Shown here in pieces: positions 1-16,080 of a DNA stretch of 64,000 nt; position 1 is the first letter of the stretch; every line of letters starts with the position of its first letter. The stretch is from Psilocybe cubensis. Lineage: Eukaryota. The stretch lies in NCBI GenBank assembly GCA_017499595.2, contig CM038999.1, positions 3,472,001 through 3,536,000 on the forward strand. Reading direction: 5' to 3'. The translations under genes and the position numbers were made by a program. A model generated the notes under the pieces. The model worked only from the letters and a program-made list of their open reading frames with translations, did not search any database and was not told where the DNA came from.

Positions 1-21
1 TCACGATCGCTCCTTGTCTAG

Positions 22-1383
22 CTTTGCAGCTCATGTTCTGCGCTGGCTGGGTTCACCGTGATATCAGCTGTGGCAATATCTTAGCTCATATGCATGATGC
101 TAAATGGCAGGTCAAGCTGTCTGATCTAGAATATGCAAAGCAGTTTCCCCCGCCACAAGATTACAAACCTGCTACTGACCCTAAAACTGTATGTTTATTT
201 CCTCAACTACGCTTGCCTGATACTTATTTTCCTTTAGGGGACACCTTATTTTATGCCACATGAAATTCTCGACCGGCGGTACCTCTACATAGCTTCAGAT
301 GCTGCACCTGACAAATTCGCCAGTTATGCGCAGCTCCGCAAACAGAAGGACCAGAAGGATGCCGACACTCAGCAACCTGCCACTCCCGATGTCACTGTTT
401 CTCAAGGGGAACAAGTCCAAGACTCCGTGCCTCAGATAGAAACGACTGTGCAAAAGGACAGCACAGTGTTTAATGCACAGAAAGAGCTCCCTGCTGAGGC
501 TATCAGCGACTCCTCCAATACCGAGCAAGTTGACCATCCCAAGCTCGATCAATTGCCACCACTCAACCGTAGGAATCAAGGCAACGGTGATCAGTCTGAC
601 GGCGACGTATTCGGTCCCTTTGAGCATGAAGAAACAAACCCTTTTTTAGAGGGGAGCGTAGTCATTAACGATGGACCGGAGGACTCTGACGCAAGCTACG
701 AGGACGAGGACGATGACGATGACGATGACGATGCAGAGACAAAACCCAACCGGATAGTCGTCCACAATTTCCAACACGACTTGGAATCCCTCTGGTGGGT
801 GCTACTATGGAACATTACCGCCCGTAGTAATCGAAAGATCTCCAACGAGTGGGCGAGAGATGTCTTTCACAACTCCCTCAATCTAACTTGGGCCCGACGA
901 GCCTGTATCATCGACGAGGTTTTGACCGACATGAAGCGTATTCTGGCAAAGCCTCTGAAGTGTTTTGCACCCCATATTGAGGACCTTAGGCATTTCTTGA
1001 AACGAGAATACGTCACCCGTGAAGAGCTCGGCGACCTTGATTCTTTCGAATCATACGTTCCGATCCACAATGCGTTCGAAACCGTCTTTAATTCCCTTCT
1101 TTCCGAGCTTCCTTCTACCTGGCGCAAAGTAAAGCTTGTAGTCAATGGTCCAGAGGACGGTAGCGGGGAGGAAATTCTTCACACGACTCTATCCCCAGGC
1201 TCAGGTGCACAACGTGAAGATAATGTTGCCGGGACAGAGGCCAATGGTCCCACCGCGGCTGCTAGCGGCGTCGCGCAGTTGGAAAAGCCTGCCCGAATCA
1301 AACGGGAGCTGTCAGAGGATGAATTGACGCCTGCTCGACGTGCAGGCCCGTCCAAACGCTCAAAACGAGGCAATGCTGATTGA
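22..1383 (+). CDS. Fungal-type protein kinase (FunK1/Pkinase_fungal), 3' part
   Basis: GWVHRDISCGNIL catalytic loop, KLSDLEYAK, intron 189-237 joining KT to GTPYFMPHEI, and HNFQHDLESLWW. A long acidic insert lies between these. The 5' end is outside the window. Confidence 0.9.
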
Positions 1384-1578
1384 TGTACCCTGTTATCTAC
1401 TTACTATGATGTTGATGTCTTCAGTTTTTCAATGTGGCATTCAAGGGAGATAGGGAAATGCTAGGATAATTGAATCGAAGTAAATAAGGCCTGCAGGCAC
1501 GGCATACACGCAGTATCATAGTGTCTCAATTAAAGCTATACAAAAATCATATCGATATACATTAATTTCTACGTACAA

Positions 1579-2556
1579 TCATACATCAGTGGCATCCTTT
1601 GAATGTTCCCAAAGCTTTTGCGTCAGTTCTTTGTTTCCGTAATACCCTTTCTTGCCTAGATCTTCTCCCTTTCTTCCCATTCTATAAGCACCAATGGTTG
1701 TATTGAGAAGACCTGACCACAAATACTCCGCGCATTGGTCTTGAGTAACAAGAAATGGTTTAGCGAGAGCATTCGCAACGGGTGCGACAGCACGCATCCA
1801 CGGTGTACGCGCGGAGTTCATAAGATTGGTGGAAACACCACCAGGGAACACATGTGAGAAAACGATTCCGGGGTTTCGTTCATGGAATGCCTAGGAAAAT
1901 ATATCAAAAATGAGAGGGAAATGAAATGATACGAATCATACCTCGATCATCAAGTCGTTATAGGTGGCGGCAGATTCTGCCGCATTTTTTACAGAGAATG
2001 TTTTCTTCAACCCCAAATCGTTCCCGTCGATTTTCCTGCCATAGCCTGTAGAGAAAACAGAAAGTACTCGTACGTCTTCCCCCTCCTCTTTGGCCTTGTT
2101 CAATGCGGGTAGAAGATCATATGTAAGCCTCCACCTCGAGTAGTAATGCACTGCAAGCTTCTTGTCGATTCCTTCTGGTGTCTCATCTCTTCCAGACGTC
2201 GAAAAATATCCAGGACTCATGACGAGGTAATTGACTTTGGGGTGTTTAGCAAGTATTTGCTCGGCAGCAGCGCGAACGTTCTTCATAAGGGTCGCGTCGC
2301 ATTGGATGAATTCGTGGCTCCAAGAAGCCCCAGAAGCGGTGGGTTTGGGGAAGTGAGCAATGATATCTCGTGCGGCGGCTTCATTTCGTCCAAGAATAAT
2401 GATGTGCGCATTGCCGTTGCGCCACTGGGCGAAGGTATCCGCAAGTCCTTGACCAATGCCAGATGTTCCTCCAAGAAAAACGGCTACAGGGGCGCCTTTG
2501 AGACCTCCAACAAGAGCAGCATTGCTCTGGGAAATAGCAGAAAGATGAGGAGCCAT
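1579..2556 (-). CDS. Short-chain dehydrogenase/reductase (NAD(P)-binding Rossmann fold)
   Basis: GGTSGIGQG nucleotide-binding motif, IIILGRN, YLVMSPG and KLAVHYYSR. One intron at about 1891-1941. Confidence 0.88.
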
Positions 2557-3294
2557 TGATTGGTTGCGTATGTAGACGGAAGTGAAGGCGATGAGCAGTG
2601 CGAATGAAGTCGCTGTGAGTTTTGGAAAGCTACTGAACGGATAGAAGGGCATGGATGTTAAACAAAAAGCAGATATGAAGCCGAAGCCCAGGATTTAACA
2701 ACGCACTGTCAAGAGCCGATACAGTGACGCAAGTGTCCCGGCTGTTGAACGCAGCTGTTGCGCATACACAGCAATTGCCAATAACCACCATTTCAAACGA
2801 TATCGCGGACATAGAACAAGTGCGGCATGTTGACGCTACAAAAGTAGGAGCCAATGAATACCGACAAGCACACAAGGTAGTGAAAAAAATCAAGTCAGTG
2901 GAGACAGACTACAGTGTTGTTGAGAATGCCGAACAACAACGGCATTCAGAATAACTCCCACCTTCGATTGATCCGGCAACTACACAATTTGCGGGCAATT
3001 TCCGGACTCCGACATATTTCTTTGCAAGGCAAATTGTACTTGCTAGACCTTCTAATGGCCCATAATCTTTCTACATTGAGTTTTTAGTATAAATGACTTC
3101 CCCTGTCAACTGTGGCAAAGTGCAAGATATCTTCAGGCCTCGTACGGCACTCGGCAAACAGCTCAAACTTGTTGGCCACTCCGCCTAAATTTCCAATGTA
3201 AATTTCAACTCCGGCACACATTGGCAACACAAGGCGACTTGAAGCCGACTCGGAAAAAATACAATTAAATTGCCATCGTGCTCAAGAGAAAAAA

Positions 3295-3375
3295 TTCGGG
3301 TACGGGGAATCGAACCCCGAGCTGCCGCGATCCTGAAATGAGAGGCGGCAATGTTAGCCGTTACACCATACCCGA
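3295..3375 (-). tRNA. tRNA-Glu(CTC) with 9-nt intron
   Basis: Reverse complement TCGGGTATGGTGTAACGGCTAACATTGCCGCCTCTCA[TTTCAGGAT]CGCGGCAGCTCGGGGTTCGATTCCCCGTACCCGAA folds as a cloverleaf, followed by an oligo-T terminator. Confidence 0.93.
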
Positions 3376-3875
3376 TGTGCTTACTAATAAGTAATATTGT
3401 GGGTTGATAATGTCGTCCAGAGGTGTGTGCTAGCTCGAACGTTGTGTCGAAAGCATGAAGCACAAATTGAATTACGGTGCTGGATTTGTGCCGGATCTCA
3501 AATGATGTTTTGACTTTACAAGTAAATGTGCAACCAAAATCAAGCAGTTCCAAGCAGACGTTGATAACGACAGTATGGTCTACAAGTGCTTCGTGCTTCT
3601 CATCATAGGATGTCTACATATCATGAAAACAGACCTAAATTTTTGCAAGTCAGAAACAGGAAGGATATATATATAGGTAGATTCATTGGGGCCATCATAG
3701 AAGAAATGTCCGACATGACGGTCAGCGTAAGCATGATCGTGGGTGACGGGCGTCTATTTACATCGATAAAGACGGAACTTTTCAACCTTGACCCAACCTT
3801 GACCTTTGCCTTTTCCCTTTGCACACTTTGAAATACTTCGTACTTGTACAAAACGGAATGCCCGATAGCTCAGGC

Positions 3876-4270
3876 TGAAGGAAACTGAACACGAAATGAG
3901 TCTCAACTCAGCTGAAGGAATCAAAGGCTTATATATTGACCTGAACACGAAATGAGTCTCAACTATAAACTAGGTCAGCTACTTTCTACGAGTAACAGAA
4001 TAAGAATGTACCTCAGCTGAAGGAATCAAAGGCTGAGGTACCGAGGCAGAAAGTAGCGAGTATAAGTGAAAAATTCGTAGCTGAAGAAGTTGATCATGGT
4101 CAAGGGAAGGTGATGCGTTGTACTAAAGTGGAAGAAGAGTTTCTCAGTCTGGAAGATGAACAGGGGAAATCGGCTCAACGACCCGATGACGAGAAAGGAA
4201 TCTTTGAGGATAAAACAGAAATAAAGGAGCGAAAAGAATGGAAAGGGATGAAAAGACTTGTATTCCAACA
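3876..4270 (-). repeat. 3' LTR
   Basis: Direct repeat of 9077-9471 with no difference found by eye. Confidence 0.96.
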
Positions 4271-4280
4271 CACCCCCTCA
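4271..4280 (-). other. Polypurine tract
   Basis: TGAGGGGGTG on the minus strand, directly abutting the 3' LTR. Confidence 0.85.
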
Positions 4281-6668
4281 ACGCATCGCCTGCTGAACCT
4301 TCTTGGGAGCAACCAGACCCAAGCGAGTAACGCCCTCAAGAAATTTGACGCGCTGAAGTGGTTTGGTGAGAATGTCGGCAGGGTTGTCTTTACCCGGAAT
4401 GTGCAGAATGTTGAAGGTCTTGGCCTCAATGTGAGATCGAATGAAATGGTAACGAATGTCTATGTGTTTAGCTTTCGAATGAGAGGAATCGTTTTCGCAC
4501 AGAGACTTTGCACCTTCATTATCGGTCGCGACGACGAGAGGATTTGGGCAGGTGATGTGTAAGTATGACAGTGAAGATCCCAGCCATAAACCCTCTTGGA
4601 CGGTACGCGTTAGCGCAATGTATTCCGACTCTGTCGAGCTAGTAGATATGCATGTTTGCGTTTTAGAAGACCAGCTCAGAGGGCCCCCAGCTACCATCCA
4701 GACGAAACCTGAAACAGAAGCACGAGACTCCCTATTGCCAGCCCAGTCGGCGTCCGAGTATCCCTGTAGAGTCTGCGAGGAGGCATCTCCACCATAATGT
4801 AGGCGATAATCTTTTGTCCCGCTGAGATACCGCAGAACACGTTTAGCAGTAGCAAAGTGACGAGGGGAAGGGTTTGAAGCATGCTGAGACAGTAGAAGAA
4901 CAGCAATTGAGATGTCGGGGCGAGAATGTCTTTGCAAGAAGAGGAGGGATCCTATCAGCCGTTGGAAGGTGGCCTTTAGATCAGGTATATCAGGGAAGGT
5001 GTCCGTGTCGCGTCCAAAAATGTTGTTGGCGTCAAGTGGGGTAGATACAGGGCTGCATTCTCTGAGACCATATTCATCGAGAATGTTCTCGATGTACGGC
5101 TGTTGATGGATCCATACTTCTCGAGTGCTCAAGTTCCTCTCGTATTGCACTCCCAGGTATGAACGTAAAGGTCCCAGGTCCTTGATACCAAAACGTTGAT
5201 TGACTGCCGATTTCGCATGGTCGAGGAACGATTTGGAATTGGATGCCCCAAGTCCGTCGTCTACGTGGATGCACAACCAGCATTGGACGTCTTCGCCGTT
5301 CCAGATTCCCTCGAATATGAAGGTGGCATGGTCCTTTTCTGAGCGTTTAAAACCTATGTCTTGCAGGGTTGAGCGGATTAATATGTACCAGACGCTGCTT
5401 GCCTGTTTTAACCCATAGAGTGATTTTTTCAACCTCCAAACACCCTTTGTAAAAGGCGACGAGTAGCCAGGGGGGCATCTCATGTGAATGACCTCTGTCA
5501 AGTCGCCCCAGAGGAAGGCTCTCGTGGCGTCAAAGCACTCAATGTGCCAGCCTTTCAGGACCGCGTGAACAACAATTGCTCGAATGCTGACGGATTTGGA
5601 CACGGGCGCGAAGGTCTCATGATAATCTATGAGGTATTTCTGAGAAAATCCTTGAGCAACTAGCCTGGCCTTGTATACAAGTTGTCCCTGATCGTCGATC
5701 TTGAACTCAAAGACCCATCGACATCCTATGCAGTGCATGCCATCTTGAAGCTCCTCGTCTGTGTAGACACCCATCGAGTTGAGCATGTGCAATTCTTTCT
5801 CGATGACCTTTCGCCACTGATCGGCGTCGGGGCGCTGCATGGCCTCCTGATAGTTGGCAGGTGGTATTTTGAGATCATAGTTGGGAGAGAGAGGATTCCG
5901 TTTGCGATCGCTCCTGACTGAGAGCAGAATGGCCTCGAAAAATGCGTCTTTGTCTCGTGAGAGATAGTCTTCAACGTCGAGCGAAATGAGAGAGGTGTCG
6001 ATGACTTGAGAGGGAGAAGGTTCTAACGTTCCAACGGAGCAAAGTGAAATGAATGGGTTTTCAACGTCACCCCCTTGCTCGTTGGAAGGCTGCATACTCG
6101 ACAAACGTTCAGCACTCGTTGCCCGTCGCGAAGCAATGATTGATTCGCTTTTTGCTTTTTCAGCCTCGCGCAGTTGAGAGTATAGGATACCTCTTGAGGA
6201 TGGATGACGTTCGCGAGAGGATGATCGAGGTGGAGGAAGTACACGTTGAGGAATGGGGGTAGAAGGAGGAGGAAGAGGATTAGATGTTAAAGGAGTGGAG
6301 GGCACGACCTGAATATCTACAGAAGATGAAGAGGAAGAGGAAGAGAGGTTGGAAGAAGTGGAAGGTTCAAGAAGTTGTGGAGAATCTAAATCGGAAGGCG
6401 AAACTACAAGATTTGGAACAGCTGAAGCGGGGGCAGAAGGAGAAGTGGACGAAGAAGAAAATACATCTGGTTGAAAAGGCAAAGAGGAATAATCTATGGG
6501 AGCAGAATTGTAATTACCAGAAACAAGCGAAGGTACATTTTCATCAAACATAGCATTTGAGGAATCAAAAAAGTGTCCGGATTCAAGATGTCGAAAACGA
6601 TAGCCTTTCCCACCAGGTGGATATCCCATAAATCTGCATTGTACAGATTTAGCCCCAAGCTTTAGTTG
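4278..6668 (-). CDS. Copia polyprotein, downstream part: integrase SH3/GKGY region, reverse transcriptase, RNase H
   Basis: FMGYPPGGKGY, KARLVAQGFSQ, LKKSLYGLKQAS, IHVDDG, YSDADWAG, KHIDIRYH, NPADILTK. Same frame as the upstream ORF, separated only by a TAG at 6669-6671. Confidence 0.93.
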   Translation of the reverse strand, partial: QLKLGAKSVQCRFMGYPPGGKGYRFRHLESGHFFDSSNAMFDENVPSLVSGNYNSAPIDYSSLPFQPDVFSSSSTSPSAPASAVPNLVVSPSDLDSPQLLEPSTSSNLSSSSSSSSVDIQVVPSTPLTSNPLPPPSTPIPQRVLPPPRSSSRERHPSSRGILYSQLREAEKAKSESIIASRRATSAERLSSMQPSNEQGGDVENPFISLCSVGTLEPSPSQVIDTSLISLDVEDYLSRDKDAFFEAILLSVRSDRKRNPLSPNYDLKIPPANYQEAMQRPDADQWRKVIEKELHMLNSMGVYTDEELQDGMHCIGCRWVFEFKIDDQGQLVYKARLVAQGFSQKYLIDYHETFAPVSKSVSIRAIVVHAVLKGWHIECFDATRAFLWGDLTEVIHMRCPPGYSSPFTKGVWRLKKSLYGLKQASSVWYILIRSTLQDIGFKRSEKDHATFIFEGIWNGEDVQCWLCIHVDDGLGASNSKSFLDHAKSAVNQRFGIKDLGPLRSYLGVQYERNLSTREVWIHQQPYIENILDEYGLRECSPVSTPLDANNIFGRDTDTFPDIPDLKATFQRLIGSLLFLQRHSRPDISIAVLLLSQHASNPSPRHFATAKRVLRYLSGTKDYRLHYGGDASSQTLQGYSDADWAGNRESRASVSGFVWMVAGGPLSWSSKTQTCISTSSTESEYIALTRTVQEGLWLGSSLSYLHITCPNPLVVATDNEGAKSLCENDSSHSKAKHIDIRYHFIRSHIEAKTFNILHIPGKDNPADILTKPLQRVKFLEGVTRLGLVAPKKVQQAMR

Positions 6669-8942
6669 CTACTCTTCTGGAACATGAACAAATGCTCGAC
6701 AGCCCCATACGCGAAGATGCAAGAGATTCGGTGGACGATGATACATATTTTCAAAAGGTGTGATGCCATCTTCATCTGTGCTGGTAATGTTGAGCAAGTA
6801 GGACGCCGTAAGAGCCGCCTCGCCCCAGTAAGTCATGGGAAGTTGCACGGTGGTCATCATGGCAAGCATCCTGCCTTGAATCGTTCGCATGAAACGTTCG
6901 ATTTCTCCGTTCATCCAATGTTCGCGCGCCGGAGTAACCTCCTGTTCAATTCCAACCTCCAACAGGTAAGCAGAGAAAACCCCCTTCCACTCAGGCCCTC
7001 CGTCGCAGCGAAATCGTTTGATTTTGAAGCCGGTGCGGGTTTCCCAGCGAGCCTTGACGATCTTGAACGCTTCCAACATAGTCTCAGAGGTTTTGTCGGC
7101 GGTGAGTTGAACGTTGTTGATCTTCATTCCTGAGCATCGAAAGGCTACGAAAAACTCTTTGTGGTGTGGGGTCTGAACTGGGAAAGGTCCACAGGTGTCT
7201 GCAACAACGAGTTCTAGAGGTTGATAGGCGCGCTGACCAAGAGAACTTGGCGGATGCGGGGTAGCGGTATGTTTAGCGATTATGCATGCTTCACATTTGA
7301 TATTATCGTCTTTTGCTTCCGCTTTCAGGATTCTCTTGACCAGCATCCGTGTCGCCTGCTCACCAGGATGACCCAATCGGAGGTGATATAGTTGCACCGT
7401 CTCAGGGACTTTAACAAACATTACCCGTTCGACGGTGGAAGAGTTGATGCCTGGCACGAAGACGGATTTGTCCATGGCAAATAGGCCGTGAACTAATGAG
7501 GCGGAAGCAAATGGAATACCCTGTTTGGAAAGATGTATTCCTTTTCCAGGGTCGAAATTGCAACCGATGCCTGCAATGAACAGTCGGCTAACCGAAAGGA
7601 GATTTACAGCGGCAGTTGGGGCATGTAGACAATTGTTAAGTTTGACTCTCAATGTTCTCCCTTGGTAAGTGACATTCATTATGCAAGTGCCTCCTCCTTG
7701 GGTTCTGAGAGTTCCGAGGTTGGCGGTGGTAACATTTCTGGCTTCTCCTTCGGAATATGTGTGGAATGAGGAGCGAGATTTTATGATATGAGAAGTGGCT
7801 CCTGAATCGAGGAGAATCGATGTCGACAGAAAAGATCTCACGTTGATGGATGCTGCAAGCGGCCCGAGCTCTTCGTCTCCAAGTTCCTCAATGAGTGCAC
7901 AAGAAATTTCTCCCGTCTCGAGGGTATTGGAATCGACTGCTAGTGAAGCAGTCTCCGCTGCCTTTTTCGCCGCTACCGCTGCGCAATACGCAGGGCCCTG
8001 ACCCTCCATGCCACCTCCTTTCGCCCAACAGTGCTCCTTGTCATGAGACCGATTTTTGCAGTTCGTGCATCGAACTCCATTCGGATTGTTGACATGTTTC
8101 ACGATAGGTCGGTTGTCGTTGGAAAAATTTGAGTATTCCGACCCGGGAGGATTGCGTCGAGAGCCTGCCTCGGCTTCTAAGCGTTGACATTCAATTGTCA
8201 AGCGGGAAGTGATTCGTTCTAGTGCAGTATTCGGCGCTGATGGTGCCCTTCCTTCATCTGTCGCAGCTTTATCCCTATCAAGGGTATCTTGGTACAGTTG
8301 TATCATCAACTGTTTGAAGTTTGGCCATACACCTGATGAAGGCAGGCCTCGAATGATGTGATGAATCACGTCGCCTTCCGGGTAATCTACCCCCATATCC
8401 TTGAGACGCTCCCTGCCAGTTCGGAATTCACCCAGATACTTCTCAATTTCCGTATAGTCCTTGAGTTTGATCGAGGCCAGTCTTTCCTTGATGGCGAATT
8501 GCGCGTTTATGTCGACGCGTGCGTACCTGGTCATGAGTTGACTCCAGACCATGCGTGCTGTGATGTCTTCGCCCGCATTGAGATTGGATTTGACTAGTGC
8601 AGACACTTTCCTCGTAATCAGTGTTTTCGCACTGTCGTCGTCGCTCCACCATTTCCGGTAAGCTGCTATGACATCGTCGGACGCGTCTTCGGCAGGTTCT
8701 GCAGGTTTGGCTGATATCGGATATCTTGCAGTTCTACTGGTTGAACCCTCAATGTGTCCATATACACCGCAGTCCTTCAGAATGTTACGCATATCGTCTC
8801 TCCACGCTATGAAGTTTGAAGTCCCTTCAAGATTGACGATGTGATCGACTTTCGCATTTGCAGGTGTGATTTTCGTATTCATTGTGAAATTGTTTATGGT
8901 GGTATGGGCATTGCTGGGATTTTCCCCTGACGTAGCCGACAT
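6669..8942 (-). CDS. Copia polyprotein, upstream part: Gag, protease, integrase core
   Basis: CX2CX4HX4C knuckle (CTNCKNRSHDKEHC), protease LLDSGATSH, HHCC (HLRLGH...CEAC), DDE core (ADTCGP / RCDGGPEW / NGEIER). Confidence 0.93.
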   Translation of the reverse strand: MSATSGENPSNAHTTINNFTMNTKITPANAKVDHIVNLEGTSNFIAWRDDMRNILKDCGVYGHIEGSTSRTARYPISAKPAEPAEDASDDVIAAYRKWWSDDDSAKTLITRKVSALVKSNLNAGEDITARMVWSQLMTRYARVDINAQFAIKERLASIKLKDYTEIEKYLGEFRTGRERLKDMGVDYPEGDVIHHIIRGLPSSGVWPNFKQLMIQLYQDTLDRDKAATDEGRAPSAPNTALERITSRLTIECQRLEAEAGSRRNPPGSEYSNFSNDNRPIVKHVNNPNGVRCTNCKNRSHDKEHCWAKGGGMEGQGPAYCAAVAAKKAAETASLAVDSNTLETGEISCALIEELGDEELGPLAASINVRSFLSTSILLDSGATSHIIKSRSSFHTYSEGEARNVTTANLGTLRTQGGGTCIMNVTYQGRTLRVKLNNCLHAPTAAVNLLSVSRLFIAGIGCNFDPGKGIHLSKQGIPFASASLVHGLFAMDKSVFVPGINSSTVERVMFVKVPETVQLYHLRLGHPGEQATRMLVKRILKAEAKDDNIKCEACIIAKHTATPHPPSSLGQRAYQPLELVVADTCGPFPVQTPHHKEFFVAFRCSGMKINNVQLTADKTSETMLEAFKIVKARWETRTGFKIKRFRCDGGPEWKGVFSAYLLEVGIEQEVTPAREHWMNGEIERFMRTIQGRMLAMMTTVQLPMTYWGEAALTASYLLNITSTDEDGITPFENMYHRPPNLLHLRVWGCRAFVHVPEE

Positions 8943-9062
8943 CTTGATATGCTATTTGTTGAGAGAAAGATATAGAGAGATGCTGAAGGGATTATCGTCC
9001 CTTGGAAAATATGTGAGCCTTTAAGCTGAGTTCTTTTCGTCTTCGTCTGATTCAGGCGCTTT

Positions 9063-9076
9063 CGGGGCCCATAACC
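9063..9076 (-). other. Primer binding site (half-tRNAiMet type)
   Basis: GGTTATGGGCCCCG immediately after the 5' LTR, complementary to the anticodon arm of initiator tRNA-Met rather than to a 3'-CCA end. Confidence 0.8.
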
Positions 9077-9471
9077 TGAAGGAAACTGAACACGAAATGA
9101 GTCTCAACTCAGCTGAAGGAATCAAAGGCTTATATATTGACCTGAACACGAAATGAGTCTCAACTATAAACTAGGTCAGCTACTTTCTACGAGTAACAGA
9201 ATAAGAATGTACCTCAGCTGAAGGAATCAAAGGCTGAGGTACCGAGGCAGAAAGTAGCGAGTATAAGTGAAAAATTCGTAGCTGAAGAAGTTGATCATGG
9301 TCAAGGGAAGGTGATGCGTTGTACTAAAGTGGAAGAAGAGTTTCTCAGTCTGGAAGATGAACAGGGGAAATCGGCTCAACGACCCGATGACGAGAAAGGA
9401 ATCTTTGAGGATAAAACAGAAATAAAGGAGCGAAAAGAATGGAAAGGGATGAAAAGACTTGTATTCCAACA
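9077..9471 (-). repeat. 5' LTR
   Basis: Direct repeat of 3876-4270, followed by the PBS. Confidence 0.96.
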
Positions 9472-9476
9472 CAGGC

Positions 9477-10521
9477 TCTCTTTTATATTCGGACTTCAAT
9501 CCTAATATTTCAGACCATGACCCCGAAACGACTGGGCTCTCGGTCGCGGATGATCTCGCAGAGGCTGTCCCCGGAGAAGCAAATTCTTCATCATCTAAGG
9601 GTAAAACTCCAGAAGTAATCGAAAGGGACTCCACCTACTTCATAGAAAGTTTATTTATGGTCTTCCAGGTGAGCGTTATATTTTCTGTTTCCTGGAGCCA
9701 GTCCTGCGCTAACCACGACCACCATTGGCTTAGGTCCAAAATTGTCTATTTCGCGTTCCAACATACCTTCTCTCTGCAGAGTCTCAAGTCTTTTCTGGGA
9801 TGTTCCACCTTCCCCAAGCAGGCGACCTTGATAACCCAGACAATGTGGAAGGATTGTCGGTTACCAAACCGATCATCTTACCAAACGAATACTTGAAGGA
9901 GGATTTTCGGAGCCTTTTAAAAGCTCTTTATCCACTGTGAGTGACAAACATTAAAATTTCGTGTCATTTCAAGTACAACGATGTGATGATGTACCCCATA
10001 GATCATTTAACATCACAGTAGATCTCTCAAAGTCTGAATGGATTTCCGTGTTAAAGTTGTCGACAATGTGGTATTTTATCAAACTCAGGAACGCGGCTAT
10101 ATCGGAGCTGGCGCACTCCGGCGTACTCGACTCTATTGAAATGGTTACACTGGGAAGAAAATATCGCATCTCTTCATGGATCACAGGAGGGTTTGTAAGG
10201 CTAATCGAAAGGTATGACAGCATTACGGACGATGAAGCCATAGACATCGATTCCACTTATGTTACCACCGCCTACAAGCTATACCGTATGCGTGAGGACA
10301 GGATTAAGAACCGTTGGAATGTGTCCGATGTTGAGGTTGTCTTTGGACCAGAGCTGCAGGCCATTCGTCAAGATGAAGAAGGTTACAAAACACCTGAGTT
10401 GGAAATCGAGTTCAGACCTGAAACCCCTCAATTAGAAATCGAGGTCCAGGCAGAAGCCAATCCACTCCCAGAACCAACAGCCATTGGAAGAAAGTCCGTT
10501 GGTTACAAGAGAAGGAAATAG
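9477..10521 (+). pseudogene. BTB/POZ-domain gene disrupted by the copia element (first 6 codons stranded at 3858-3875)
   Basis: Exons 9477-9668, 9734-9936 and 10002-10521 encode MVFQ|VQNCLFRVP...FRSLLKALYP|...WISVLKLSTMWYF. Removing the element joins ATG3858 (MPDSSG) in frame to SLLYSDF. Confidence 0.85.
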
Positions 10522-10729
10522 GTGGCCAGAGCTTACTAGCTCAGTATATCTGTTGTGGAAAAGTAAATGATTCCTTAGTGGATAGCGGATATTTTTTGTT
10601 CTTAGTATTTAAGGATTAACTTCCTACCTTGATATGCACCTCGCATTTTTTTGTTTTATGCAACAGACCCCAGAGGTAGGGACACACGTGGAATTTGTCT
10701 GTATGTGTACACAGATGCTTTGTACCGGC

Positions 10730-10826
10730 GATGAGGCCATAGACGTCAATTCTGCGTATGTTATAACCGCCTATATGCTTGCTATATGCTATACCTGTAT
10801 GCGTGAAAATAAGGTTAAGAACCGTT
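10730..10826 (+). pseudogene. Degenerate fragment paralogous to the last exon of the adjacent BTB gene
   Basis: DEAIDVNSAYVITAY...MRENKVKNR resembles DEAIDIDSTYVTTAY...MREDRIKNR at 10231-10315. Confidence 0.7.
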
Positions 10827-11006
10827 AAACTTATCCAGCGATTCCTCAGTCAGAGATTGGGTTCAAGCTTGGAACTATTTAACCACAGAGCAGAATTAAA
10901 AAGAAAATATAGGGAGTAAGCGATAATGTACCCATAATGTACATCAATATTTAACATACATGCGCTAGTAACTGCTGCATGCAAAATATAAGTTTCCAGA
11001 GAAAAA

Positions 11007-11088
11007 TTCGGGTACGGGGAATCGAACCCCGAGCTGCCGCGATCCTGAGAATGAGAGGCGGCAATGTTAGCCGTTACACCATACCCGA
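11007..11088 (-). tRNA. tRNA-Glu(CTC) with 10-nt intron
   Basis: Mature sequence identical to the 3295-3375 copy; intron TTCTCAGGAT; T5 terminator. Confidence 0.93.
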
Positions 11089-12156
11089 CAACAACAATTT
11101 TTGCGGTTGTCTTGTCCTGGCCATTTGAACTTCAACTGCTTCCCCTGAACCAAAGTAAGTAAATAAATCCACTTCAGTTGTTGACTTTTTCAGACCCGAA
11201 AAATCGAAGGCTGTTAAATCGAAGGCTGTTAATCGTGAGGTCATTTGGCTGGGACACAGATTTGATATAGCAGTGGATAGGGGCACCTATTGGCATGTAT
11301 CGAGTTCATCCACACTCATGTTAAAAAGATTAGACTTACGCTAAACATGGACTCGAGGTGATATTCTAATCCAAAGCGTTGGCACACGGGCGCCTATGAA
11401 GTGGCTGAACACCTCCCCTGCTTGGCATGACACTTCCTTTGTTCCCATCCTTGGCACATGTACTGTAGGTGTCCTGCGCAGCTAATCAGCCAACGTGGAG
11501 ATATTCGCCTGGAGGTGTATTTCTCCAACCCATCGCTTCAGTCCTGATTGAGAAAGAAGGTATTTTCATTTTCAGACCTTCTTTTTCTGCTTATATGTCT
11601 AGCTTCAGGTGTCCGGTTGGAAACTCGCAATTTTTACAAAAGGCTTGTCCGTGAACTTGGCACGCACTCAAATTCAAGTCTCAAGTTTAATTCATTGGCC
11701 TATCAGTATATATCCTTCATTTGTGAGGAGAGTGGAAAATCAACATGACTTTACTATGTCCTCACCTGTAGGGCTTTTGAGTCCGCTCCTGGCCCTGCAG
11801 TCTTCGGGGTGAAATCAAAAGGGAATTCCTGTGACCTCAGTAGAAACTAGAAAGTGGATCTCTTGTAAGCTTTCCAGATATCAAACACTTGGCATTCGTC
11901 AGTGCACCAGCGTTTATTGATGCTGCATTGCCCTAGTCCTTCGATAACTTATGATGATGTGTAGACAGGCAATGTAAACCGAGGATACATTCTATTTTTA
12001 TTGAGTACGGGCCCTACGGCGATTGACAGTCGAATTCTCACGGTGGTCCGTCCATCTGCATCAGTGATGGAAGGAGCTACTACATGCGGCCCTTATATTT
12101 CCCACTGCGAGCCTTGTTCTGGCAACCGGCTCTTTCTTCTACACTATTCACTCAAA

Positions 12157-13615
12157 ATGTTGCGCACTGTCGCGCTCGCCATTCTTTTTGAAACCGCCTT
12201 TTCACAACAACTAAACCTTCTAAGGAAATATAGTGGAACTACTTTGTGCGTGTCAATATAGACACACTGCAGTCATACATACTCATTCTTTGCTTACAGC
12301 TTCGATCAATGGAACTTCAAGACAGGTAACGATGCCACCGACTTCTTTGGAGAGCCAGGAAACAACGGTTCGTGATATTGGGTTTATTTGCCAATGATTT
12401 GTTGACACCTTTCACATTCAGGCAACGTAAACTGGTTAGACCAAGCCACTGCTGCGTCCCGAAACCTTACTTCAGTCAACGCAGCTGGCAATGTCATCAT
12501 GAAAGTGGATGATTTCACCAGCGCAACTCCGGGTGGAACATATGGTAGAGACTCTGTTCAACTGGTTAGCAAGGACCAGATTACTGCGGGGAGCCTTGTC
12601 ATCCTGGATGCTGTCCACATGCCCTTTGGAGTAAGTAACCTACCTTTCTACTTTGGATAAGGTGCTGACCTCTTCTAGTGTTCCGTGTGGCCTGCCTTCT
12701 GGATGACTGGCGGCGCCAACTGGCCTTCCAGCGGTGAAATTGATATTGTTGAAAATGTCAATCTTGCTACCAGGAATCAATACTCGCTCCACACCCTTGA
12801 CGGTTGCGCTCACCCACCCACCATGTCGTCCTCCGAGACAGGTAACTTGATCAGCCCCAACTGCTTCGTCAACGCGACTGGCCAGGCAACCAACCAAGGC
12901 TGTCTCATCGCCGACTCTAACCTTTCGTTCGGCTCTGGTTTCGCTAACGCCGGCGGAGGCGTCTTTGCTATGCTCTGGAACGACGACGGCATCAAAATCT
13001 GGTTCTTCTCTCGCAGCGGGACCATTCCTGCAGATATCACTACCACCAACCCCAACCCTGCTGGCTGGCCAAACCCTGTTGCGTTCTACCCTAGCTCTAC
13101 GTGTGACACGTCTAAATTTTTTGGCCCTCAATCCATGATCCTTGTTGAGTTGACACCTTCACGTGCACTTGCCGTAATTGCTTACGACCATTTCTATTTT
13201 TTTCCTCTATCACCAGGAAACCAATGTGTGTGGTAATTTCGCAGTCGATGTCTTTTCGACCACCTGCCCCGGACGTGGGCAGTGCGTTGATCTCATTACT
13301 GACCCATCTAACTATCACGACGCGTACTGGGAGATCAAGTCATTGACTGTCTTCTCCAAGTGAGTTGATGTTAATATGTTTTCGTTTTTTTGCTCACTTT
13401 ATTTTGTCATTAGCACGACCACTAGCACCCCCGGATCTAGTTCCACTGGGGGATCTGGGACCACCAATCCAACGGGGAGCACTGGTGCGGGCACCACAGG
13501 TGGTTCAGGTGCAGGCGCACCGCAACCAACTGGTGCTGCTCTTTCACACACACTTGGTCCCATCGGAGTCGCTGCTAGTGTCTTGGCTCCCCTATTCGCC
13601 TGGATCCTTCTGTAA
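12157..13615 (+). CDS. GH16 endo-beta-1,3(4)-glucanase-like protein, secreted, probably GPI-anchored (copy 1)
   Basis: Signal peptide [21 protein letters not shown]...[14 protein letters not shown] catalytic motif, Ser/Thr/Gly tail and hydrophobic C-terminus; multi-exon. Confidence 0.92.
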
Positions 13616-14574
13616 TTGCCCAAGCACTGTTCCCTTTAGCTTGTACTCCACTGCGCACCCGTACGTCAAGGACAATGGACGATCTACTATTTACATTTCC
13701 ATAATGTTTCCTATGTTTGTTTTACATGTTGTAATTCAAACCACGATTGACACAACTGTTATACCCTTGCTTTCCAAGCCTTGGCGAATGATATATAAAT
13801 GTCCAAGTCGGCTTAGTTGTTTGTCTTAGCCTGCGGGCGCTTACTCTTTTTCTTGGCTACGTGCTGTGTTCTTAATCAGGTCATTGAATTCTCACTCCAA
13901 GGTATGTCGAACCTATATTTGAGGCGCCAGTTCTAAATTCATGTGGATAACGATCCTTTTTACAGGCTCGAACATGGTGATTCCTACCTTTCCTGAAACC
14001 CGCGTTTTTGCTTGCAGATGAACGTTCAAGTAAGCCATGGCCATATGTTCAACTTTGCACTGCACAACACAAACCTGGCCCCAAAGTAGCGGGCCTCACA
14101 GAGCGACGTTAATAATCGGATCACTCCGTCAAACCTGGGTGTTGAACAAATCATCCCATATTATTGACCGTGCTCTGTTGACAGCACCGAAAATAAATCA
14201 GTTGTCCAATGTCCGAATCATTCGCAAGGCGCGTGGGGAGCCGATGTATTATTTCTCTATCATACTGAAGGTGAAAGGTACGCTCAAGCAAAATTTCTGA
14301 GTCTTATACCAAGGATCTCTTACAGACATGAGTCCTGACGGCGGCAAGTGAACGTTGGACATCTGACATCGCTCAGCGATGTTGACTGTTAAGCAACCAC
14401 GATGTGTCTAATTTTAACCCTTCTCACAAGGCAATGCCATCAATGCCGTTCTCGCTCTTAAAAGCGATTGCCTTACAAAAGGCGATGTTCCTTCGGCCTT
14501 TCTGTTCCGTACTCGATTCATCTTTAATAACCTGGTATACGCTCGCAACTTGATCCCCCACCTTCCTTCTGAAA

Positions 14575-16080
14575 ATGTTGCGTGGATTAGCGCTTGCCAT
14601 TCTTTTCGAATCTGCTTTTGCCCAACAACAACTTACCCTGGCTAGAAACTATAGTGGGAGTGGCTTGTGAGCATCAATGTTGTGTGGGGAACATCAAGGT
14701 TGCACGCCATAACAATCCACTCTTTAGCTTCGACCTATGGAACTTCAAGACCGGAAATGACGCTACGGACTTTTTCGGGCAGCCAGGAAATAACGGTGAG
14801 CCATGAAGTTAGGCCAAGCTTGGGCCAAGCCAATGGCGGCTGGTTTCTGACTCCTAAACACCCATCTGCTAGGCAATGTGAATTGGACCGACCAAGCAAC
14901 CTCAGCCGCCTTTGGTCTCACCTTCGTTAACGATGTGGGCAATGTCATTGTCAAGGTGGACAACACGACTAGTGCTGCTCCTGGTGGAACCTATGGACGA
15001 AACTCTGTGCAAATGCTTAGCAAAGATCAGATAACAGCCGGAAGTCTTGTCGTTTTGGACGCAATCCACATGCCCTTTGGCGTAAGTATCCTCACGTTTT
15101 CCGCATGTTCCTGTTGGGTTTACTAAGCATCGTGCTGTAGTGTTCGGTCTGGCCTGCGTTTTGGATGATTGGTGCCGATTGGCCTACTAATGGCGAAATT
15201 GATATAGTAGAGAACGTCAATCTCGCGACTAAGAATCAGTACTCTCTCCATACGCTGGATGGATGCAGCCACCCTCCGGATGGTGTCGTTCAGGAGACAG
15301 GAACTCTCAACAACGCCAACTGTTTCGTCAATGCCTCGCACAACGAGGGATGTCTTGTCGCCGATGGTCCGTTGTCCTACGGAGCTGCCTTCGCAAATAA
15401 CGGAGGTGGCGTTTTTGCCACCCTCTGGGACAGCAATGGCATCAACATCTGGTTCTTCCCTCGCAGTGGGCCAATCCCAGCGGACATCGATTCTCCATCA
15501 CCTAACCCTTCGAGCTGGCCGACCCCTGTGGCCTCATATCCTGTCTCAACGTGCGACGTGTCCAGGTTCTTCGGACCGCAAACCATGATTCTGGTTGAGT
15601 TTAACGCTTCCCTCTTTATGGATAAATTTTCTCACAGATCATTACCCTTTGCTGATTAGGAAACTAACGTTTGCGGGAATTTTGCAGTTGATGTGTTCTC
15701 GACAACTTGTGGGTCTGGAAAATGCACCGACCTAGTCACTGACCCTACAAATTATAACGATGCATACTGGGAAATCCGATCTATAACCGTCTTCTCAAAG
15801 TAAGTATGATAATGGCTTCTGGGGGGGCGACCTGATTAATTTGTCGAAAAGCTCTACTACAAATAATCCAACAAGCACCAGCAACGTAGCTTCCCCTACC
15901 TCTGGTACTGGAAGCGGATCAGGGGCTAGTGGTACTGACTCTAGTTCAAGCGGAAACTCAACACCAAATGCAGGAACGACCTCAAATTCTGCTGCCATAC
16001 CCAGATATAATCTGGGCGCCGTCGCTTTTGGTGTCATCGTTCCCATAATGATATCGTTGACAGTATGGTCGATGCAGTGA
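14575..16080 (+). CDS. GH16 endo-beta-1,3(4)-glucanase-like protein, secreted, probably GPI-anchored (copy 2)
   Basis: Tandem paralog with the same intron positions; [17 protein letters not shown] tail and hydrophobic end. Confidence 0.92.

Follow-up and report, generated by a model that had tools for sequence, protein, structure and literature searches.

Psilocybe cubensis contig CM038999.1 carries, within the 64,000-nucleotide stretch analysed here (the window), a Ty1/copia long terminal repeat (LTR) retrotransposon whose single polyprotein frame is broken by one in-frame TAG inside integrase (IN). The locus raises the question of whether this stop is damage or part of the way the element is expressed, and of how the reverse transcriptase (RT) encoded beyond it would be made. 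A first-pass annotation had proposed leaky termination, aided by the 3' context of the stop and by a hairpin. We find that the stop is old and conserved, and that it is always TAG where DNA is visible. Programmed stop-codon readthrough is probably the best explanation of the conserved codon.

The element is complete and lies on the minus strand (9471-3876, 5,596 bp). Its domain order, Gag-protease (PR)-IN-RT-RNase H with an RVT_2-type RT in Pfam, is that of Ty1/copia, and the LTRs, primer-binding site, polypurine tract and target-site duplication provide all the hallmarks of this superfamily. A single frame runs from 8942 to 4278 (1,554 codons), and its lone interruption is codon 758, a TAG at 6671-6669 in the context GAG TAG CAA CTA. 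The first-pass annotation had described one frame split only by this TAG, identical LTRs and the absence of any other lesion. All three statements are borne out, the last by the open frame, in which no further lesion was found, and by Pfam matches to Gag, PR, the GAG-pre-integrase domain, SH3 and RT. The primer-binding-site motif, which we take to be an internal initiator methionine tRNA site of the Drosophila copia/Ty5 type, is also present in 16 of 35 related loci. The LTRs contain internal duplications of 23-24 nt. Because an empty insertion site, with 3870 joined to 9472 and 5601 nucleotides skipped, was observed in sequencing runs X11, X12 and X6, the insertion is polymorphic; judged by its sequence, the element is also young and autonomous.

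The TAG is supported by reads from other samples. Most of the region is represented in seven sequencing runs (three studies), and two of these may be its source. Four of the 14 listed runs were aligned to it, and X11 and X12, which come from one study, span all 30 bins with the raw reads examined (26% of the former run and 29% of the latter). The stop at 6669-6671 is untouched by any of the 40 variants listed for these two runs, a further 290 weaker variants lying outside those listed. A second haplotype, about 1% diverged, accounts for about half of the reads. Some of the reads carrying a variant at 6675 (13/26 in X11 and 13/27 in X12) show no other difference, and therefore the second haplotype very likely also has TAG; an assembly error is an unlikely source of the codon. 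The 39 listed coding variants comprise 21 silent ones, 17 amino-acid replacements and one that creates a new stop at codon 1044. This last variant (window 5813), found in about half of the X11 and X12 reads and in an X7 contig, means that at least one sister copy is decaying. The X11 and X12 reads show no close sister copy with a sense codon in place of the TAG, an observation to which the first-pass annotation had attached weight. The reads also contain diverged relatives of the LTR, together with loose ends at 4260-4291, 6361-6418 and 9043-9106, a sign that the genomes sampled carry related families.

More distant relatives have the stop too. A metagenome scan returned 46 related loci, 35 of them alignable; the 11 set aside comprise three without coverage, six that are misaligned, truncated or frameshifted at the site (one, L043, has TAA at the extrapolated position) and two distant loci with Asn. 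The equivalent of codon 758 is TAG in 11 of the 35 loci and Leu in the other 24 (12 CTT, nine CTC, and one each of CTG, CTA and TTG), and the TAG, a single codon, lines up with the Leu codon of the sister lineages. Two of the TAG loci, L005 and L009, are full-length, 51% identical to the window polyprotein, aligned over residues 31-1545 and broken by the TAG alone. In a third, L040, the TAG is the only interruption between residue 690 and the end, and the remaining eight are partial or have further lesions. The LTRs are 99.4% identical in L005 and 99.7% in L009, and such near-identical LTRs around intact frames indicate recent transposition of TAG carriers. A separate scan, of viral contigs, yielded no relative.

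Protein databases show the same boundary. Among 34 proteins matched by the end of ORF1, six stop exactly at the residue before the TAG, 25 continue, two end 12-14 residues earlier and one does not cover the site. A further set of 148 proteins, 141 of them mappable, includes five that end exactly at this residue, with every other end offset within 30 residues shared by at most three of the 141. The ends of P0147 and P0179 at the equivalent residue are attributed to chance, both being distant and outside the clade. Five closer proteins (57-71% identity), one of them from Psilocybe cyanescens, end at the same residue. With P. cyanescens as the closest named relative, and judging also from the genes that flank the element, the host is probably an agaric. 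Some proteins and loci represent the same element (P0009 is L005). No full-length polyprotein closer than 48% was found among the longer proteins, which is weak evidence, and protein searches returned no stop-free member of the window's own subclade.

The identity of the codon is also constant: it is TAG in all 12 stop-bearing elements (the window and 11 loci) and never TAA. As a control, only four of 40 conserved Lys, Glu or Gln columns hold one codon across seven elements, and the other stops in related loci (50 TGA, 14 TAA and 5 TAG) each recur in at most four of 36 loci. There is modest support here for the retention of UAG itself, rather than of any stop.

Substitution patterns suggest that the sequence beyond the stop is translated together with that before it. 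Synonymous sites are saturated between the window and L005 or L009, the proportion of differing synonymous sites (pS) reaching 0.76-0.86 in the IN core, RT and RNase H. When L005 is compared with L009, pS and its nonsynonymous counterpart (pN) are 0.38 and 0.019 in RT, 0.36 and 0.020 in RNase H, and 0.58 and 0 in the 13 codons that separate the stop from the next ATG. Across seven subfamilies these 13 codons preserve the residues Q-S/L-K-L-G-A-K-S with varied synonymous codons, so that coding constraint continues in frame directly after the stop, as at a readthrough site. By this measure the coding sequence on both sides of the stop is intact and under purifying selection. The strong purifying selection on RT and on the 13 post-stop codons requires ribosomes to pass the stop without leaving the frame, and in-frame translation of the 13 codons argues both against reinitiation at the downstream ATG and against a passenger element. 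The first-pass annotation's central proposal, a stop retained inside the SH3 region of IN which must be bypassed, is thus sustained by its presence in relatives down to 51% identity and by the purifying selection downstream. Near and after the stop, synonymous divergence among TAG loci falls to 0.25-0.37 from 0.46-0.55 in five of six upstream windows, with no such drop in Leu loci; this is a lead only, as recombination among close subfamilies could produce the same pattern.

The stop splits a Pfam SH3_retrovirus domain (codons 734-803) lying after PR (377-455). In an AlphaFold model of L002, a stop-free Leu relative, the predicted local distance difference test score (pLDDT) is 90.6, the fold matches retroviral integrases, and residue 265, the equivalent of the stop, falls between strands 256-260 and 273-280 of a five-stranded barrel. 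In the modelled structure, therefore, the stop is between SH3 strands 1 and 2 and divides a folded domain. The gag/protease border, where Tca2-type stops are found, is not the site of the stop here, codon 758 being inside SH3. Coordinates of the element are collected in Table 1.

Table 1. Features of the retrotransposon, in window positions
Feature	Position	Strand	Remarks
5' LTR	9077..9471	-	395 bp, TG...CA, identical to 3' LTR
3' LTR	3876..4270	-	395 bp
Target-site duplication GCCTG	9472..9476; second copy 3871-3875	-	5 bp
Primer-binding site GGTTATGGGCCC	9065..9076	-	directly after 5' LTR
ORF1	6669..8942	-	757 aa: Gag with CCHC knuckle, protease, integrase N-terminal region and core, SH3 strand 1
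ORF1 Pfam matches			residues: PF14223 81-203, PF22936 377-455, PF13976 500-558
In-frame TAG	6669..6671	-	codon 758, kept in relatives
3' context CAACTA	6663..6668	-	fits CARYYA here; relatives CARTCC
Integrase SH3-like C-terminal domain PF25597	6534..6743	-	codons 734-803; predicted stop position in loop after strand 1
Hairpin, 10 bp	6629..6651	-	from +18; real, specific to window element
Stop to next ATG	6630..6668	-	13 codons (ATG 6629-6627); amino acids kept, synonymous variation
ORF2	4278..6668	-	796 aa, same frame: SH3 remainder, low-complexity linker, RT, RNase H; TGA end
RT PF07727	5753-5034	-	
Polypurine tract GAGGGGG	4273..4279	-	overlaps final TGA

Two candidate signals surround the stop. 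The window sequence UAG-CAA-CUA fits the UAG-CAR-YYA signal of tobacco mosaic virus (TMV), as the first-pass annotation had pointed out, and only three codons of the 1,555 in the element, the stop among them, are followed by an in-frame CARYYA. The likeness does not extend to the relatives: nine of the 11 related TAG loci read CAR-UCC after the stop, and two decayed copies read TAA-TCC. All 24 Leu loci likewise have Gln at +1, in agreement with the annotation's own caution that CAR might encode a conserved Gln. Pyrimidines stand at +4 and +5 in 12 of 12 TAG elements, with none at +4 in the 24 Leu loci, and GAA precedes the stop in 11 of 12 TAG elements vs 13 of 24 Leu loci; both associations come from two independent subclades only.

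The hairpin proposed as the second signal folds as described (6651-6629, starting at +18: 10 bp, a 3-nt loop, one G-U pair, -7.9 kcal/mol). It is the sole unbroken stem of at least 9 bp in the 4.66-kb coding region, and its length was matched by 1% of 300 synonymous shuffles. Its energy is ordinary: an equally stable 23-nt window lies near 5.8% of positions, and the predicted fold of the 72-142 nt downstream of the stop is no more stable than that of shuffled sequences (z -0.2 to -0.65). As a signal of the family this hairpin is rejected, being neither conserved nor accompanied by covariation. A different stem at +21 is predicted in seven of 11 TAG loci, all of one subgroup (-10.6 to -13.9 kcal/mol), and in four of 24 Leu loci (-6.2 to -9.3 kcal/mol). 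In total, a stem of at least 9 bp begins at +18 to +21 in eight of 12 TAG elements and four of 24 Leu elements; in structure-stimulated readthrough (types II and III) the stem-loop or pseudoknot begins about 8 nt downstream of the stop. A possible longer stem from +9, present in both TAG and Leu loci, was not counted. A stem might at most be an optional enhancer.

We propose that a leaky UAG operates within the single polyprotein frame of a copia lineage in agaric-type fungi. Most ribosomes would terminate there and release Gag-PR-IN without four of the five SH3 strands. A minority would insert an amino acid at the UAG by means of a near-cognate tRNA and complete the Gag-PR-IN-RT-RNase H polyprotein, which would be the only source of complete IN and of RT. 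The signal may lie in a weak local context, in which the stop mostly follows AA and is itself followed by CAR-YY. Gag would thereby outnumber RT, as retroelements require, and the switch would act late in pol and not at the gag/pol border.

Several observations weigh against programmed readthrough. The stop is missing from 24 of the 35 loci and is therefore not required for such elements, and the 11 loci that have it form one subclade and are not independent. For P0002, P0003, P0004, P0037 and P0047, which belong to the window's subclade, only the end of the protein is visible and not the codon. An exact CARYYA follows the stop in the window alone (1/12 TAG elements). The +21 stem is absent from L005, L009, L035 and L039, the intact L005 and L009 being without a long stem, and the consensus fold contains no conserved RNA structure (covariation term 0.28 kcal/mol). 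In the Candida albicans element Tca2, local context alone did not direct readthrough (PMC2194720; here and below, statements from cited papers refer to the excerpts available to us).

Phylogeny, too, is divided. In a PR+IN tree of 28 selected rows, the 10 stop-bearing rows form one clade nested among Leu or Met lineages (SH-like approximate likelihood ratio test 94.6, bootstrap 96), and an 88-row FastTree recovers the same clade with a weaker support of 0.82. The RT-RNase H tree (LG+G4 with 18 of the 30 rows retained; three rows were labelled from their start Met only) instead joins the L005 group to Leu elements (84/93), and forcing its nine stop-type rows together is rejected (approximately unbiased test, p 0.0275). 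This conflict between the trees implies loss in Leu lineages, two gains, or recombination between the halves of the element. Under each of these histories, whether gain with later loss, two gains or recombination, the stop is old.

Readthrough could also serve a bolder purpose, although we consider this rather unlikely: the stop might be placed to yield two integrases, one abundant and lacking the C-terminal domain, the other full-length, rare and linked to RT. Truncated molecules could occupy the outer positions of the intasome or act as a brake on copy number. In foamy virus the C-terminal domains are dispensable at outer intasome positions (PMC6784120), and in prototype foamy virus (PFV) intasome entries the B chains comprise 181-184 residues vs 365-368 in the A chains. 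If this were so, readthrough would set the composition of the intasome and not only the Gag:RT ratio.

Among the alternatives to readthrough, splicing survives best, and even so is improbable. The AG of the TAG would be a splice acceptor, and a spliced mRNA lacking the stop would encode the RT-containing protein. This would account for the invariant TAG; other copia elements regulate Gag:Pol by splicing (PMC5580714), and an in-frame GT(-39)...AG(stop) pair is present in 12 of 12 TAG elements. That GT, however, belongs to the conserved Val codon of an RVWG motif, an in-frame pair with a consensus donor occurs in one of 12 elements only and is located elsewhere, and the window's own 39-nt GTAG...TGCAG candidate is not common to the relatives. 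Splicing at the stop would moreover remove SH3 strand 1, and the elements differ in how many AGs they have just before the stop.

A-to-I editing of some transcripts, which would turn the UAG into UGG (Trp) in the manner of the premature-stop correction of Fusarium, is very unlikely. The constancy of TAG would suit it, as would a hydrophobic residue in the place of the sister lineages' Leu; fungal editing of this type prefers U at -1 and corrects UAG (PMC11156358), and editing has been reported in the basidiomycete Microbotryum in a 2026 paper (PMC13608869). Against this, reports from Ganoderma and Polyporales are judged artefacts, and the stage-specific cofactors that editing needs are described in Sordariomycetes (PMC11156358), the closest named host here being an agaric. 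In addition, predicted folds place the UAG in a paired region and not in a loop.

A separate start of RT at the ATG 13 codons past the stop, through an internal promoter or reinitiation, combined with an integrase that functions without SH3, is likewise highly improbable. An ATG is found at +14 in 12 of 12 TAG elements, and Tca2 has a minor junction promoter (PMC2194720). The same Met is kept in 22 of 24 Leu loci, however, both halves of the SH3 barrel are conserved, and the 13 intervening codons, conserved as amino acids and synonymously variable, require translation. Proteins that start at the downstream Met are unspecific as evidence, some of them coming from Leu or distant lineages.

That the TAG lineage is defective and mobilised in trans by stop-free relatives is most unlikely. 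Leu-type elements are common in the same collection (24/35 loci), yet strong purifying selection on RT and RNase H through saturated synonymous divergence is unexpected for a passenger, and the protein searches found no stop-free member of the window's subclade.

We give practically no credence to a newly arisen nonsense mutation or an assembly error confined to one copy, or to a host in which TAG is reassigned to sense. The element is low-copy and decayed stop-bearing copies are common among its relatives, but relatives at 51-70% identity also have a stop here, 23 of 24 Leu loci use CTN, more than one change away from TAG, and other samples' reads agree with the assembly. Reassignment is countered by the presence of only one TAG among 1,555 codons.

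Some features of the surroundings and of the related loci were recorded alongside. Near-identical tRNA genes lie on the minus strand at 3295-3375 and 11007-11088, about 500 bp and 1.5 kb from the element. ARAGORN calls the first tRNA-Arg(TCT), while by eye both resemble intron-containing tRNA-Glu(CTC), and Rfam reports only two tRNAs in window 1-15000. Insertion directed by tRNA genes is unsupported, tRNA calls occurring in two of 35 related loci, both doubtful. The ARAGORN tRNA-Tyr(ATA) calls at L034:387-461 and at L040:5373-5447 and 5596-5670 are probably false; they lie near a 145-bp repeat found in TAG-type loci and near the primer-binding site. At some Leu-type loci (L001:280-2601 and 5353-7674; L011, L022, L025) a second element begins right after the first, which may reflect a shared LTR, a tandem array or an assembly fold-over. 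The flanks of L026, L027, L003 and L039 contain long tandem arrays with periods of about 126, 150 and 72 nt. Elsewhere in the window, 12151-13236 and 14569-15126 hold tandem paralogues with stretches 77-82% identical, labelled by eye as glycoside hydrolase family 16 (GH16) glucanase-like. An open reading frame at 238-1383 has an HDLES motif and presumably represents the end of a fungal-type protein kinase.

Readthrough itself is known; its location inside integrase we found described for no other retroelement. Full-text literature searches, a survey of fungal LTR elements (PMC3248453) and a recoding review (PMC5009743) yielded no stop inside integrase in the text available. All retroelement stops found in print lie at gag/pol or pol/env borders, supplements, Repbase and GyDB being outside the scope of the search. 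Single-frame copia elements are described, in a few cases, as controlling Gag:RT by splicing, by turnover of the Pol protein or by a stop at the gag/pol border (PMC5580714). The present lineage suggests a further solution, a late-pol switch that leaves PR and the IN core in excess and would ration only complete IN and RT. Its coexisting stop-bearing and stop-free sister lineages form a natural comparison of the costs and gains of such a switch, and it offers a candidate UAG readthrough signal for mushroom-forming fungi. One consequence for annotation is that members of this group that are young and probably active appear in gene calls as pairs of broken genes.

The nearest relatives in kind are two fungal copia elements, Tca2 (pCal) from C. 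albicans and VdLTRE5 from Verticillium dahliae. Each, like the element described here, has a single in-frame stop to be bypassed before RT can be made; canonical CARYYA is absent from both in the excerpts describing them (PMC2194720, PMC3441728). Their stop is UGA at the gag/pol border, whereas the UAG described here lies within a folded domain that follows PR and the IN core. Tj1, Tcry1 and Tosmo1-3 of fission yeasts, with GAA-TGA-CT, have a conserved in-frame stop after GAA, the triplet that precedes the stop in most of our elements, and the Tj1 stop is essential for transposition (bioRxiv 10.1101/2022.12.06.519325). These elements differ in belonging to the Ty3/gypsy superfamily, in using UGA and in placing it at the gag/pol junction. 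Stop suppression is used as well by SIRE1, a soybean copia element (pol-stop-env), and by Moloney murine leukaemia virus (gag-UAG-pol, with a pseudoknot) (PMC2194720). Their stops lie at gene borders, and the consensus fold of the elements studied here shows neither a pseudoknot nor a stem that is conserved.

Two viral systems are informative. The window motif fits the type I signal of TMV, and in both cases the polymerase is downstream of the stop (PMC3542737). The relatives, with UAG-CAR-UCC, miss the A at +6, and their CAR is inherited as a conserved Gln. In the alphavirus replicase an opal codon stands within an enzyme polyprotein before the polymerase and is optional among members (PMC3542737). 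That system differs in its type II UGA, in its extended stem-loop and in being an RNA virus. The opal codon, moreover, is near a protein boundary and not within a domain. Its presence in some members and absence from others parallels the TAG and Leu lineages described here, and in this respect the alphavirus replicase is the closest parallel in logic.

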